From a virus (Duplodnaviria; Heunggongvirae; Uroviricota; Caudoviricetes): a stretch of DNA of 4,848 nt. A program made the translations under genes and the position numbers. Position 1 is the first letter of the stretch, and each line of letters begins with the position of its first letter. This document shows positions 1 through 4,848 of this stretch, piece by piece. The stretch is taken from IMG/VR virus record IMGVR_UViG_2617270960_000012; one strand, 5' to 3'. The notes beneath the pieces were generated by a model that saw only the letters and a list, made by a program, of their open reading frames with translations, ran no database searches and was not told where the DNA came from.

Positions 1-504
1 TTATTGATAGTGTTTTATGTTCAGATAATGCCCGATGATTTTGTCATGCAGCTCCACCGATTTTGAGAACGACAGCGACTTCCGTCCCAGCCGTGCCAGG
101 TGCTGCCTCAGATTCAGGTTATGCCGCTCAATTCGCTGCGTATATCGCTTGCTGATTACGTGCAGCTTTCCCTTCAGGCGGGATTCATACAGCGGCCAGC
201 CATCCGTCATCCATATCACCACGTCAAAGGGTGACAGCAGGCTCATAAGACGCCCCAGCGTCGCCATAGTGCGTTCACCGAATACGTGCGCAACAACCGT
301 CTTCCGGAGCCTGTCATACGCGTAAAACAGCCAGCGCTGGCGCGATTTAGCCCCGACATAGCCCCACTGTTCGTCCATTTCCGCGCAGACGATGACGTCA
401 CTGCCCGGCTGTATGCGCGAGGTTACCGACTGCGGCCTGAGTTTTTTAAGTGACGTAAAATCATGTTGAGGCCAACGCCCATAATGCGGGCTGTTGCCCG
501 GCAT
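1..504 (-). CDS. insB: IS1 transposase InsB frame; normally expressed as an InsAB' fusion by -1 ribosomal frameshift
   Basis: The 167-aa ORF from the track matches IS1 InsB along its length (…[18 protein letters not shown]…[39 protein letters not shown]…). The stop codon is at the window edge (1-3 reverse complement). Confidence 0.9.
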
Positions 505-696
505 CCAACGCCATTCATGGCCATATCAATGATTTTCTGGTGCGTACCGGGTTGAGAAGCGGTGTAAGAACTGCAGTTGCCATGTTTTACGGCAGTGAGA
601 GCAGAGATAGCGCTGATGTCCGGCGATGCTTTTGCCGTTACGCACCACCCCGTCAGTAGCTGAACAGGAGGGACAGCTGATAGAAACAGAAGCCAC
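423..696 (-). pseudogene. insA: IS1 insA with an internal frameshift; the N-terminal zinc-finger part and the C-terminal HTH part are in different frames
   Basis: Translated from GTG at 696 (minus), the frame reads [43 protein letters not shown], then shifts and stops at 526-528. The InsA C-terminus ([33 protein letters not shown]…LKNSGRSR) appears only in another frame, fused to unrelated upstream sequence in the 423..725 track ORF. Compared with canonical IS1 as I recall it, this is a 2-bp deletion between window positions 568 and 569. The IS1 length in the window (751 + ~15) is also 2 bp short of 768. Confidence 0.6.
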
Positions 697-751
697 TGGA
701 GCACCTCAAAAACACCATCATACACTAAATCAGTAAGTTGGCAGCATCACC

Positions 752-967
752 CGCCTCTGCAAACGCTGCGACCCAATAAGCGAAATGCTTCGCTCATATA
801 AACCAGATGAACACACTAAGGACGCTATCGACTGGCTGGAAGATGATGACTGTGACTATCAGGAAAAAGCCGCTGAATGGTTCTGGGATGCAATAACCAA
901 AAGAGTTAAGGCTGAATATGCCTTCGCAATATTCAAACGCAGACACATTTTTGGAGAAGCAGCATGA
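752..967 (+). pseudogene. 3' remnant of a phage early gene truncated by the IS1 insertion; product unknown, possibly the partner of recT
   Basis: The frame of the 785..967 track ORF stays open with no stop back to the IS1 boundary at 752. There is no Shine-Dalgarno before the ATG at 785. Its TGA stop overlaps the recT ATG (ATGA at 964-967). Confidence 0.35.
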
Positions 968-1866
968 GCAATATCGTTGAATTCGTTAAACAGCAAGAGC
1001 AGTTATTCTGCGGAGCATTGACTGAACAGACGGTGACATGGGCTAAGGAAAGCCAGTTTGCAATTCAGTATTTCCAGAAAAATGATTACCTGGCTAAAAC
1101 GGCACTGGCAAATCCAACCAGCGCACAGAACGCCATCATCAATGTTGCGGCGATCGGCATCACCTTAAACCCGGCCAGCAAACTTGCTTATCTAGTTCCG
1201 CGCGACGGCATGGTTTGCCTTGATATCAGCTATATGGGATTACTTCACCTTGCACAGTCGACAGGATCAATTAAGTGGGGGCAATGCAAACTGGTGTACT
1301 CAAACGACACCTATGAATCAAACGGCCTTGATTCAGCACCAACCCACAAATACAACGCATTTGGTGAGCGAGGCTCTATTGTTGGTGGTTATTGCACGGT
1401 TAAAACAGCAGATGGTGACTACCTGACTGAAGAAATGAGTCTGGCAGAAATTAAAGCTGTGGAAGCAACGAGCAAGGCAAAGAATGGACCGTGGAAAACA
1501 TTCTGGGAAGAGATGGCGCGTAAAACAATAGTTAAACGCGCCAGCAAATACTGGCCTAAAGCCCAGCGACTGGATAATGCCATTCACCTGCTTAACGAAG
1601 ATGAAGGTATGCATCAGGAACCAGTTATGCCGCACAAATCAGAGGAAGATATACGCGAAGATGAACGGAAACGCCAGCAGGAAATAATGGATAAAGCACA
1701 ACTTCTTTGTGATGAAATGGCTCAAGCAGAAAACATGGATGATTTGAAGCGATATTTTGCAGAAGCATATCGCCTGACATCTGGAATGAAATTGCAGCAG
1801 AACGTACAAGCCATTTACGCAGAATGCAAAGCGAAACTGGAGGTTGCCAGTGAGCAAACTGTATGA
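964..1866 (+). CDS. recT: RecT-family single-strand annealing recombinase
   Basis: 300-aa ORF with GGAGA 6 nt upstream of ATG 964. The motif NGPWKTFWEEMARKTIVKRASKYWP matches the conserved core of E. coli RecT (NGPW..HWEEMAKKTAIRRLFKYLP). It carries a long charged C-terminal tail. Confidence 0.88.
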   Translation: MSNIVEFVKQQEQLFCGALTEQTVTWAKESQFAIQYFQKNDYLAKTALANPTSAQNAIINVAAIGITLNPASKLAYLVPRDGMVCLDISYMGLLHLAQSTGSIKWGQCKLVYSNDTYESNGLDSAPTHKYNAFGERGSIVGGYCTVKTADGDYLTEEMSLAEIKAVEATSKAKNGPWKTFWEEMARKTIVKRASKYWPKAQRLDNAIHLLNEDEGMHQEPVMPHKSEEDIREDERKRQQEIMDKAQLLCDEMAQAENMDDLKRYFAEAYRLTSGMKLQQNVQAIYAECKAKLEVASEQTV

Positions 1867-2332
1867 AATTGCCAATGAATACGCAAAATTGATGGATTCA
1901 GATTTAGAACCAGAGATGATTGCTGACACAATAGAAGGCATGGAAGGAGAATTTACCGATAAAATAGAGCAACTTCTTTCCGTCATTAAAAATGAATCTG
2001 GTTATGCCGAACGCCTCAAGGAAGAGGCAAAGTCACTGAATGAGCGAGCCACAGTAATTCAAAATAAGATTGACAGCATTATGGCGTATATAGCGTCATC
2101 GCTTGAAATGGTTGGCAAGAAAAAGATTCGAGCAGGTATTCACCAGGTAACAATCCGCAAACCGTCAGAAACTGTAGAAATCATCGACTCAAGCGCCCTT
2201 CCTCCTGAATACGTTGAGTTTGAAACGACAATTAAAGCCGACAAACTGGCAATCAAACACCAACTAAAAGCAGGAATAAATATCCCCGGCGCTCAACTCA
2301 AAGTTGGGAAACCTTCACTTCTTATCAAATAA
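1850..2332 (+). CDS. Siphovirus Gp157-family protein, commonly found next to phage recombinases
   Basis: The N-terminus (SKLYEIANEYAKLMDSDLEPEMIADTIEGMEGEFTDKIEQLLSVIKNE…) and the …VTIRKPSETVEIIDSSALPPEYVEFETTIKADKLAIKHQLKAG… region fit the Gp157 family pattern. Start is placed at GTG 1850 (GGAGG at 1839-1843, 6-nt spacer) rather than the track's TTG 1844. It overlaps the recT stop by 17 nt. Confidence 0.72.
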   Translation: MSKLYEIANEYAKLMDSDLEPEMIADTIEGMEGEFTDKIEQLLSVIKNESGYAERLKEEAKSLNERATVIQNKIDSIMAYIASSLEMVGKKKIRAGIHQVTIRKPSETVEIIDSSALPPEYVEFETTIKADKLAIKHQLKAGINIPGAQLKVGKPSLLIK

Positions 2333-2343
2333 CGGTATCGACT

Positions 2344-2658
2344 ATGAAAAAGACTCCATGGGAGAAATGGGAAGTCGATTTCTTGCGCGAAGTAGCGGCG
2401 ACAATGCCAGTTGAAGTTATCGCTGAAAAACTGGAAAGGACTGAAAAAGCAGTAATAGCAAAAGCAACAAGGATTGGCGCTGACATTGTTAGCCGACTTC
2501 GTGGAAGACGCTGGACAAGAGCCGAAGTATCACTTTTCGGTAAGTTCTCCGCAGAAGAAATAGCAATTGCAACCTGCCGCTCAATTTATTCAGTGAGAGC
2601 TATGCGATACAAGCTAAAAAAACTCGATGAAGAGAGAACAGGCATACGAATAAATTAA
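2344..2658 (+). CDS. Small protein with two tandem helix-turn-helix-like repeats (sigma-70 region 4 / Myb-like pattern); putative DNA-binding regulator
   Basis: 104-aa ORF with an internal duplication: [12 protein letters not shown]…[24 protein letters not shown] and [39 protein letters not shown]. No obvious Shine-Dalgarno before ATG 2344. Confidence 0.55.
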
Positions 2659-2674
2659 CAAAGAGGAATTTACC

Positions 2675-2842
2675 ATGAGAGGACTTGCATACAATCCCGG
2701 CATTCTTCCGGCAGAAATGATTATTCGCCAACGCGTAAAGCCAATGCCATCGAGAGAAGAATTGCTTAAGAGAAAGAGTTTCGGTTCTGTTAATGACAAC
2801 AAATATCTGAATGCGATGTGGCGCAAAGGAGGCAACCAGTGA
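2675..2842 (+). CDS. Small basic hypothetical protein (55 aa), not in the supplied ORF track
   Basis: ATG 2675 follows AAGAGGAA (2661-2668). Translation is [55 protein letters not shown]. Its TGA stop (2840-2842) overlaps the GTG start of the next gene (GTGA). Confidence 0.5.
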
Positions 2843-2843
2843 G
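2827..2843 (+). repeat. Copy 1 of an exact 17-bp direct repeat aggaggcaaccagtgag (Shine-Dalgarno plus GTG start module)
   Basis: Identical 17-mer at 2827-2843 and 3068-3084. It extends to 20 bp with one mismatch (t/c at 2844/3085). Confidence 0.85.
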
Positions 2844-3093
2844 TAATTCAGCACGACTACAGCTTGGTTTTTCACCGCTATCAAAAACTATCATGCTGGC
2901 AAAAATGCGCGATGTTGAAGGTGGACGTATGCGCGTTGGCAATGATCCAGGTCGTGATGTTACCAATGAGGCTGCTCAATTGGTGTGGCGACTGGTCATG
3001 GCTGAAGGTGGTGAGATCGCGTGGGAGCTGGATGATGGTTCTCGCATGGTGTTGAAGGCAGAAAAGCAGGAGGCAACCAGTGAGCAAGATTGA
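2839..3093 (+). CDS. Hypothetical small protein (84 aa)
   Basis: GTG 2839 follows AGGAGG (2827-2832, 6-nt spacer). Same frame as the track ORF 2818..3093. The gene body is flanked by two copies of an exact 17-bp repeat. It overlaps the next gene's start by 14 nt. Confidence 0.55.
3068..3084 (+). repeat. Copy 2 of the exact 17-bp direct repeat aggaggcaaccagtgag
   Basis: See copy 1. Spacing between copies is 241 bp. Each copy contains the ribosome-binding site and GTG start of the gene that follows it. Confidence 0.85.
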
Positions 3094-3793
3094 TTATCAG
3101 GCACTGCGTGCTAAGGCAGAAAAAGCAACGTGTGGTGTATGGTCGCTCGAATATGGAGAGAGCCGATTTGATGGTGATGATGCGCTAATTCATCGTGAAG
3201 TTGCTGGATATATTCCCATTTGCAGAATTGAAGGAGCGCATCCAGAAAGCGGTTTCGATGAAGATTTCCAAATGGAACAGCAGGCCAATGCTGAATTCAT
3301 CGCAGCAGCCAGTCCAGCTACCGTGCTGGCACTACTGGATGAACGGGAAAGAAACCAGCAATACATCAAACGCCGCGACCAGGAGAACGAGGATATTGCG
3401 CTTACGGTTGGGAGGCTGCGCGTTGAGCTGGAAGCAGCAAAAAAGCGCATAGCAGAACTGAAAGCCGAACCTGTAAGCCAAACTTACAAGTTGAACCAGC
3501 TATCGGGCAATTCTCCGGTAACTCCGGATGGTTGGATAAGCTGTAGTGAGCGGATGCCTGTAATTGGCGAGCTAAATTGGAGAACTAGTTTTCCTTTACT
3601 GGTTACGTGTGAGATCGGCGTTATACCTGCTTATTACGGCTTTGTGAGAGTTAATGGGAATAAGCATTATGGTTTTATGGAGAGTCTTAAATATGGAGAT
3701 GATAGCGGCAACCATCCTCAAACTAATGAATATGACCTGATTAGCAATGTAACCCACTGGAGCCGCTGCCAGAACCGCCGAGCAGGATGGTGA
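3080..3793 (+). CDS. Ea22-like prophage protein with a C-terminal DUF551-like domain
   Basis: 237-aa ORF starting at GTG 3080 after AGGAGG. The N-terminus [16 protein letters not shown] resembles Ead/Ea22-like proteins of enterobacterial prophages. A central coiled-coil-like stretch (RLRVELEAAKKRIAELKA) is followed by a C-terminus (GWISCSERMPV…NVTHW…) resembling DUF551. Confidence 0.65.
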   Translation: MSKIDYQALRAKAEKATCGVWSLEYGESRFDGDDALIHREVAGYIPICRIEGAHPESGFDEDFQMEQQANAEFIAAASPATVLALLDERERNQQYIKRRDQENEDIALTVGRLRVELEAAKKRIAELKAEPVSQTYKLNQLSGNSPVTPDGWISCSERMPVIGELNWRTSFPLLVTCEIGVIPAYYGFVRVNGNKHYGFMESLKYGDDSGNHPQTNEYDLISNVTHWSRCQNRRAGW

Positions 3794-3796
3794 ATA

Positions 3797-3883
3797 ATGC
3801 CGCCAGTTAAAGTTGTGATTATCACTTTGGTGATGATAGTGATTGCGAGAATCATGTCTGGTGAAATTGGGTGGATATGGTAA
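3797..3883 (+). CDS. Possible 28-aa hydrophobic micro-peptide with a single predicted transmembrane helix
   Basis: ATG 3797, translation MPPVKVVIITLVMIVIARIMSGEIGWIW, stop TAA 3881-3883. Only a weak AGGA lies 9 nt upstream. It sits directly after the Ea22-like stop codon. Confidence 0.25.
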   Translation: MPPVKVVIITLVMIVIARIMSGEIGWIW

Positions 3884-3946
3884 TGACCAAGGCAGCAGCA
3901 GAGCGCAACTAACAATCCTCGCACTGACGGGGATTTCTTTTATCTG

Positions 3947-3971
3947 AACTCGCTACGGCGAGTTTTGTTTT
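3947..3971 (+). terminator. Intrinsic (Rho-independent) terminator-like hairpin
   Basis: Perfect 7-bp stem aactcgc / gcgagtt with loop tacg, followed by the T-rich run ttgtttt. Confidence 0.5.
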
Positions 3972-3984
3972 ATGGAGATGATAA

Positions 3985-4152
3985 ATGCACTTCCGAGTCA
4001 CAGGTGAATGGAATGGAGAACCATTCAACAGAGTTATCGAAGCAGAGAACATCAACGACTGCTATGACCACTGGATGATATGGGCGCAGATAGCACATGC
4101 AGACGTAACCAATATTCGAATTGAAGAACTGAAAGAACACCAAGCCGCCTGA
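3985..4152 (+). CDS. Small acidic hypothetical protein (55 aa)
   Basis: ATG 3985 follows GGAGA (3974-3978, 6-nt spacer). Translation is MHFRVTGEWNGEPFNRVIEAENINDCYDHWMIWAQIAHADVTNIRIEELKEHQAA. Terminator-like hairpins lie on both sides. Confidence 0.55.
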   Translation: MHFRVTGEWNGEPFNRVIEAENINDCYDHWMIWAQIAHADVTNIRIEELKEHQAA

Positions 4153-4167
4153 TGGCGGTTTTTTATT
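4142..4167 (+). terminator. Intrinsic terminator-like hairpin overlapping the stop codon of the 55-aa gene
   Basis: Stem aagccgcc / ggcggttt (8 bp with one G-U pair), loop tgat, followed by ttttatt. Confidence 0.45.
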
Positions 4168-4178
4168 GGAGACAAGAA

Positions 4179-4523
4179 ATGTCAGATTTGGCTATGAAGG
4201 TTTTGAAATGGCAATCGACTGGCGATGTCGGCATCAGTAGCGCAACTCTTGCCTCAATCGCATGTGGCCTGAAAAAGAATATCTATGGTCATCACTTCGG
4301 CGCTCCGCATGACGCAGCCGATTTCCGACGATGCGTTGCACTTGTTGAGCAGATTCCAGAAATCAGAGATTCATTCGACAAGGTTGCAAAGCGCGTTCCG
4401 GCATTCAAAGGCATCCTCAACGAATGGGATTCCCTCGTCGCTCTGTTGAAGTCTGAAATGAAGATACACGGAAACAAAGCACCAGAGACTTACAGAAGAA
4501 TAAGCGAGTTACGCAATGACTAA
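4179..4523 (+). CDS. Hypothetical prophage protein (114 aa)
   Basis: ATG 4179 follows GGAGA (4166-4170). It is in the same frame as the track ORF 4152..4523, whose upstream ATG lies inside the terminator hairpin and is therefore less likely. No family recognised. Confidence 0.55.
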   Translation: MSDLAMKVLKWQSTGDVGISSATLASIACGLKKNIYGHHFGAPHDAADFRRCVALVEQIPEIRDSFDKVAKRVPAFKGILNEWDSLVALLKSEMKIHGNKAPETYRRISELRND

Positions 4524-4647
4524 CCACAGCCTCACACTCGATGAGGCCTGTTCATTTCTCAAGATATCCAGACCTACCATTGCTGCATCAATGCGGCTTT
4601 TTATTGCCTGATTTGCAGGTTCGATTCCATATTCGGAGATAGCACTC

Positions 4648-4848
4648 ATGCAACACGAACTACAACCTGATTCACTGGTTGATTTGAAATTCATCATGGC
4701 TGATACTGGCTTCGGTAAGACCTTCATCTATGACCGGATTAAGTCCGGCGACCTGCCTAAAGCCAAAGTTATCCACGGACGAGCAAGATGGTTATATCGT
4801 GACCATTGTGAATTCAAAAATAAGCTCTTAAGCCGCGCCAATGGGTAA
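4648..4848 (+). CDS. AlpA/Xis-family small helix-turn-helix protein; excisionase or transcriptional regulator
   Basis: 66-aa ORF with GGAGA 9 nt upstream. The core …FIMADTGFGKTFIYDRIKSGDLPKAKVIHGRARWLYRDHCEF… fits the AlpA/excisionase pattern (…TG.S.STIYR.I..G.FP.P..LG.R...W…). The stop codon is the last 3 bases of the window. Confidence 0.78.
   Translation: MQHELQPDSLVDLKFIMADTGFGKTFIYDRIKSGDLPKAKVIHGRARWLYRDHCEFKNKLLSRANG

Follow-up and report, generated by a model that had tools for sequence, protein, structure and literature searches.

An IS1 copy at the edge of a prophage remnant in Escherichia coli appears in the database with two bases missing from its first gene, and it raises the question whether this copy has lost the capability to express its own transposase or whether the gap was assigned to it in the course of assembling a repeated sequence. 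The stretch of DNA on which our analysis is based comprises 4,848 nucleotides (the window) and is contained exactly in contig JNRP01000033.1 of a draft genome of E. coli 3-020-07 (GCA_000704745.1). An earlier note, prepared from the letters of the window, had described a 2-bp deletion that frameshifts insA and had proposed that the copy is likely non-autonomous.

A 2-bp gap in the insA frame of an IS1A-type element

The window starts with an IS1A-type insertion sequence on the minus strand (1–751, corresponding to IS1 positions 753 to 1 in an alignment to IS1A of E. coli K-12, NC_000913.3 19796–20563, insA1/insB1). Both elements share the left terminal inverted repeat (IRL, 729..751, minus), which overlaps the IS1 promoter and is identical in the two, the start of insA, the A6C motif, the insB reading frame and the domains described by PF03811, PF12759 and PF03400, in an architecture that has been summarised together with the roles of InsA, InsAB' and A6C (PMC12903888). 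Since the window begins at the stop codon of insB, the right inverted repeat (IRR) is short of its final 15 bp; the source contig contains the complete 766-bp element including an intact IRR, and its end coincides with the outer end of IS1 (position 768). Over this full length (JNRP01000033.1 9754–10519 against IS1A 1–768), we find four mismatches and the 2-bp gap, equivalent to an identity of about 99.2%, and the best IS1 copies in complete genomes are 99.5% identical to the element in the window. Positions 1–125 show no differences to K-12 IS1A. Besides the absence of positions 184–185, the window copy is distinguished from the latter by 126 C>T, 291 C>T, 444 T>G and 715 G>A. The first two of these substitutions account for the deviating residues that had been pointed out before (KSIAG for position 126 and LNMILRHL for position 291), and the last is the common V>I allele of insB. 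The insB frame (1..504, minus, 167 aa) is undisrupted and encodes the DDE catalytic domain (PF03400, DDE_Tnp_IS1, E=5.6e-78), and the exact protein is present in 32 collection blocks (24 contigs read) from several assemblies. A size of about 768 bp with imperfect terminal inverted repeats of about 23 bp (with IRR taken from the source contig), an insA with zinc ribbon and HTH, an overlapping insB' DDE frame in –1 and the A6C motif together assign the element, as judged by its sequence, to the thoroughly characterised IS1 family.

A single two-column gap is observed in the alignment of the window with K-12 IS1A and equally in that with the IS1 residing at the same locus in the finished genome of strain 1297KP. 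The gap corresponds to IS1 positions 184–185 and is located between window bases 569 and 568 (568..569, minus), where the loss can be written equally as CA or AC. At this site the reference reads CAGTTCACTTACACC and the window CAGTTCTTACACC, with GTTCACTTAC of K-12 IS1A being converted into GTTCTTAC, and the allele strings that define the two states at 184–185 are CAGTTCACTTAC for the undeleted and CAGTTCTTAC for the deleted sequence. The gap is thus present in the deposited sequence, precisely at the junction 568/569 where it had been proposed.

The loss follows codon 43 of insA and parts the zinc ribbon from the HTH domain. From the native GTG at 696, the list of open reading frames contains a 56-aa ORF (526..696, minus) in which 43 native zinc-ribbon codons ending in WQLQF are followed by 13 out-of-frame codons and a TGA at 526–528, in agreement with the stop reported previously. 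The split of the two domains between frames, also part of the initial description, is reflected in the assignments by Pfam, which locate Zn_ribbon_InsA (PF03811, E=3.5e-21) to residues 1–36 of this ORF and HTH_Tnp_IS1 (PF12759, E=1.6e-28) to the 3' part of insA (423..567, minus), which is off-frame with respect to the native start. The latter is enclosed by a 100-aa ORF (423–725, minus) that extends without a stop to a GTG at 725 and contains the HTH domain as residues 53–97. In K-12 InsA, by contrast, both domains are part of one 91-aa protein. Past the lesion, the N-terminal frame coincides with that of insB' and is closed by the TGA bounding this frame, which precedes the insB ATG (window 504) by 22 nt. 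The A6C motif of programmed –1 frameshifting (AAAAAAC, 441..447, minus; gttttttaag at 441–450, reverse complement CTTAAAAAAC) is intact, but ribosomes initiating at the native start would not arrive there in the insA frame and, on paper, neither InsA nor InsAB' would thus originate from this start. With IRL intact in the window and IRR intact in the source contig, mobilisation in trans would be plausible.

The same locus in related sequences and the reliability of IS1 interiors

We have compared the assemblies of three sister colonies (JNRO, JNRP and JNRQ), and the locus in the first of them differs from that of the window at the site of the gap. In contig JNRO01000027.1, IS1 is found at the same junction with a flank that is identical to the window in 1716 of 1716 bases, and it shares the copy-specific 126T and 291T, yet it is undeleted at 184–185 and a full 91-aa InsA has been called. 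A similar relationship is found for 1297KP (NZ_CM173856.1), which in our comparison of complete genomes is the only one with an IS1 at this site. Its sequence is 100% identical over window 752–4848 (4,097/4,097 bp), and its IS1, which has the same insertion point, is intact, encodes full-length InsA and is annotated by PGAP as an IS1A-family transposase with programmed frameshift. A continuous 91-codon insA frame reaching A6C, which we have used as the mark of an autonomous copy, is therefore broken in the deposited sequence of the window and present at the same locus in JNRO and 1297KP. In part, this is the kind of observation that the earlier note had itself named as speaking against its proposal. 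The proposed non-autonomy consequently holds on paper, where no InsA or InsAB' is encoded from the native start, whereas the deletion underlying it cannot be assigned with confidence to this copy. Between the IS1 of 1297KP and that of the window there are four differences, at 184–185 (the gap), 262, 291 and 715, while 126T is common to both. All four are located within the 751 bp of IS1 and none in the adjoining 4,097 bp, a distribution with a chance probability of (751/4848)^4 or about 6e-4, which points to either assembly noise that is specific to the repeat or exchange between IS1 copies.

The origin of the data bears on this choice. The source strain appears to belong to the isolates of a study of Tanzanian children, for which HiSeq 2000 reads of 100 bp were assembled using MaSuRCA 2.3.2 (PMC6222053), a connection that we have drawn from the naming scheme and the protein names at NCBI, as the name 3-020-07 is absent from the main text of that paper. 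The cluster of a frameshifted 40-aa product (P0002) names the isolates 3-020-07_S1_C2 and S1_C3. In the three sister assemblies, the interior of IS1 is demonstrably unreliable. This is evident in JNRP for the creC insertion, where two contigs flank one IS1 with a 9-bp target duplication (CATTAACTC), one of them (L010) being undeleted at 184–185 and carrying 127T, the other (L004) showing a 1-bp deletion at 185 and 127C. It is equally evident for the DUF3829 insertion, where the two flanking contigs of one IS1 (L017 and L021, duplication TACGGCATT) differ at position 127 (T against C) and at 262 (A against a gap). Inconsistencies are also found between assemblies. The IS1 at the nhaR locus reads 262A/291T in JNRQ01000011.1 (L015), where it is spanned within a 149-kb contig, and 262-gap/291C in JNRP (L022), and an IS1 with the right flank CGATGGCCATTACAG carries the 2-bp deletion in JNRP (L023) but lacks it in JNRO (L007). 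At position 184, contigs on the right flank are the least trustworthy. The single-base gaps at 185 and 262 coincide exactly with positions that vary among copies, and we infer that they could be the product of a consensus built from mixed alleles. Since the interiors of IS1 contradict each other across these assemblies, the assignment of an allele to a locus is not trustworthy. A homopolymer-type sequencing error was considered as a separate cause of the 2-bp gap and rejected, since the gap lies outside any homopolymer and the data are from Illumina.

The practical lesson concerns data quality. With one physical IS1 being represented by different sequences in two contigs of the same assembly, indels and single-nucleotide differences inside multi-copy insertion sequences at the contig ends of short-read drafts should not be taken as biology of the specific copy.

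Origin and distribution of the deletion allele

Beyond the 3-020-07 isolates, the exact allele was seen in none of the collections searched. An 80-bp probe spanning the gap was compared with about 63,600 IS1 places from 5,426 complete E. coli genomes, none of which matched it exactly over its full length; the best match was a plasmid-borne IS1 copy, noisy and frameshifted, that has lost 1 bp (TTCCTTAC). There was likewise no exact match of the allele among the best 5,000 PLSDB records, and an exact 32-mer had 0 matches in GTDB representative genomes and 0 in JGI metagenome contigs. An exact look-up of the 56-aa product returned no record, the gene callers having used a 40-aa zinc-ribbon version, and frameshifted product is on record from 3-020-07 isolates only (17 + 2 contigs), apart from one decayed copy with a different change in its DNA. 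In the sister assemblies, in which the assignment of alleles to loci is unreliable, the deletion has been placed at at least six loci and, in JNRP, at seven of the IS1 contig ends, next to one undeleted end and one with a 1-bp deletion. Three of these loci are old insertion sites for which finished genomes have an undeleted orthologue, namely nhaR (K-12 IS1A), bcsE (RM10740) and the locus investigated here (1297KP). At bcsE, a junction probe identified an undeleted IS1 of RM10740 at that very junction; 1297KP was not among the matches listed for this probe, which reports on the sharing of IS1 sites with the source strain.

Collectively, we consider it somewhat probable that the gap is a misplaced or collapsed-repeat call and that the copy at this locus is intact. 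The 2-bp gap would then reflect the consensus that was assembled for a multi-copy repeat, and most likely it was not resolved for this particular copy. The deletion allele may stem from another IS1 copy of the strain or have been born during the building of the consensus, and the assembler would have placed it at most IS1 contig ends. The intact state of the physical locus, which we infer from the sister-colony assembly and the closest finished genome, is suggested by several features: the source is the end of a contig in a 100-bp-read MaSuRCA draft, one physical IS1 has been given two sequences within one assembly (creC and DUF3829), sister assemblies are in conflict at the same loci (nhaR and the pair L023 and L007), JNRO01000027.1 and 1297KP are undeleted at this very locus, the deletion has been put at old sites that are undeleted elsewhere (nhaR and bcsE) and the exact allele is absent from the other collections searched. 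An intact copy would be expected to act as any IS1, with InsA, comprising zinc ribbon and HTH, repressing the promoter in IRL and rare –1 frameshifting at A6C giving rise to the InsAB' transposase.

Several observations oppose an intact copy. Two of the three sister colonies (S1_C2 and S1_C3), each sequenced independently, show the combination of 126T and the deletion at this locus, and the two features are separated by only 58 bp and thus fit into one 100-bp read. At the iutA locus, the left-flank contigs of all three assemblies carry the deletion, and a deletion-bearing IS1 is spanned within the 149-kb contig JNRQ01000011.1. Error-corrected Illumina data seldom create a 2-bp deletion outside of a homopolymer and it is for this reason that reads carrying the deletion probably exist in the 3-020-07 clone.

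The same observations form the basis of the closest alternative, a genuine deletion in this copy, which we regard as possible although somewhat doubtful. The element would in this case be a pseudogenised, non-autonomous IS1, whose allele might have spread by gene conversion or IS1–IS1 recombination. It would encode only the 56-aa zinc-ribbon peptide and perhaps free InsB, would neither repress itself nor produce InsAB' and, its ends being intact, would move only with InsAB' supplied in trans from an intact copy such as the creC copy. Besides the presence of the gap in the deposited sequence, the reproduction of its haplotype with 126T in two sister assemblies and the consistent or spanned calls at other loci, this possibility is favoured by the dominance of the allele at the IS1 contig ends of JNRP and by the location of all differences to 1297KP to the right of position 127, as expected for a single tract of conversion or recombination. 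It is also in line with published data in which InsAB' acts in trans on immobile copies of IS1 as well as on a mini-IS1, less efficiently than in cis but measurably (PMC12903888). What speaks against a genuine deletion is the intact insA at this locus in both the sister colony with identical flank and in 1297KP, the absence of the allele from every other collection searched and the fact that the same assemblies demonstrably miscall the 184–185 site in other copies. Moreover, the deletion is found on three different backgrounds at positions 126/127 and at ancestral sites where other strains lack it, and a genuine deletion would thus require several conversion events, each of which ended within one interval of 58 bp.

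A more far-reaching version of this proposal, in which the deleted insA allele is real and has been homogenised over most IS1 loci of the gut E. coli clone 3-020-07, including the ancient site at nhaR, by repeated gene conversion or mobilisation in trans, leaving one or two intact copies as sole source of transposase, appears unlikely to us. Confirmation of the deletion at many loci would make it a modest case of concerted evolution of a defective allele of an insertion sequence within one genome. Finally, the earlier suggestion that ribosomes could reach the C-terminal frame by another route has found no support, and it is highly improbable that the deleted copy remains functional in this way. 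Such a route could be, for example, a compensating +1/–2 shift near the lesion or a start at GTG 725 leading to the 100-aa HTH protein, and the HTH frame is indeed open from 725 down to 423 and reaches the intact A6C motif in the insA frame. However, the lesion is devoid of a slippery motif, the GTG lies within IRL, ahead of the native start, with no evidence of its use found, its product would be without zinc ribbon and the gene callers have chosen the 40-aa zinc-ribbon ORF instead of any such product.

With respect to known systems, the state of the window copy in case of a genuine deletion would correspond to that of the immobile IS1 and mini-IS1 elements described in PMC12903888, which contain intact IRL and IRR but no transposase of their own. 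These elements were either non-consensus copies of K-12 (IS1B, C, D and F) or engineered cassettes whose behaviour was shown experimentally, whereas the window copy is known from its sequence and its lesion is doubtful. A dead IS1 that moves only with InsAB' supplied in trans would thus be an instance of known biology. IS1 is among the best-studied insertion sequences and inactivated copies are routine, so the biological weight of the case is small and there is no novelty under either reading.

Indels within the same TTCACTTAC stretch of insA were encountered in two unrelated assemblies, in GCA_040012095.1 (5894–6650, TTCCTGCACC) and in NZ_JBWLLW010000003.1 (759–1524, TTCCTTAC), in both cases in IS1 copies with many further mismatches and gaps, and the stretch could be a local hotspot for either mutation or sequencing and assembly error. 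The copy in NZ_JBWLLW010000003.1, which is the plasmid p02A16CRGN003_D, is annotated by PGAP as 'IS1 family transposase, frameshifted' and resembles the window in the position of its indel, but it differs from it by the loss of a single base, 15 mismatches, 5 gap openings and the frameshifts also found in its neighbouring genes, and it represents a different allele in either a noisy assembly or a decayed copy. The protein WP_432419016.1 (P0003) ends in the same frameshifted tail and was considered as an independent occurrence of the deletion, but this was rejected, as its DNA reads TTCCTGCACC instead of TTCTTACACC and the IS1 encoding it shows 10 mismatches and 8 gap openings.

The adjoining prophage remnant

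The remainder of the window (752–4848) consists of a KplE1/CPS-53-like prophage remnant next to argW, containing a truncated ORF, RecT, Gp157, small ORFs, an Ead/Ea22-like protein and torI. Its junction with IS1 (window 729–967; 5965–6775 in the 1297KP stretch L002) adjoins a prophage ORF that is annotated as missing its N-terminus, of which 60 aa remain (window 785–967). The right flank of the element being absent from the window and its contig, we have compared the flanks of the orthologous copy in 1297KP, which differ (GCAGAGGCG and AACATGGCG) and thus do not form a target-site duplication of 8–9 bp. Other IS1 copies of the source assembly do have 9-bp duplications. Combined with the N-terminal truncation of the neighbouring ORF, this absence suggests a later deletion associated with IS1 or a recombination between two IS1 copies, rather than an element outside the family, and the element seems to mark the place between intS/EpsG and recT where the KplE1-like prophage has lost a segment.

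Different insertion sequences gather at the edge of the prophage near recT. In another strain (JAULIM010000006.1, GCA_030509325.1, 1–180), a divergent IS1 isoform, of which 179 bp are present with an identity to IS1A of only about 82%, shares the exact same junction with the prophage flank, which suggests that the IS1 found here was replaced or that a second, site-specific insertion took place. In a third strain (JAKWKA010000032.1, GCA_024164725.1, 231–1444), the gene of an IS3-family transposase (404 aa) is located immediately upstream of the same 60-aa ORF and recT.

Within the remnant, a 17-nt string (AGGAGGCAACCAGTGAG) is found at two overlapping stop/start gene junctions (window 2826–2842 and 3067–3083), with a similar sequence (GGAGGTTGCCAGTGAGCAA) at a third (1846–1862), and it looks like a module of ribosome-binding site and start codon that is reused between small prophage genes. 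The Ead/Ea22-like ORF (window 3080–3793) constitutes a continuous frame of 237 aa, for which PGAP lists in 1297KP only a partial pseudogene (L002 9064–9459) despite identical DNA, and the mismatch is thus a discrepancy in annotation and not in sequence. Finally, at the end of a 55-aa ORF (3985–4152), a hairpin with a subsequent run of T (AAGCCGCCTGATGGCGGTTTTTTATT, window 4143–4166) has the appearance of an intrinsic terminator and extends into the beginning of the next ORF.
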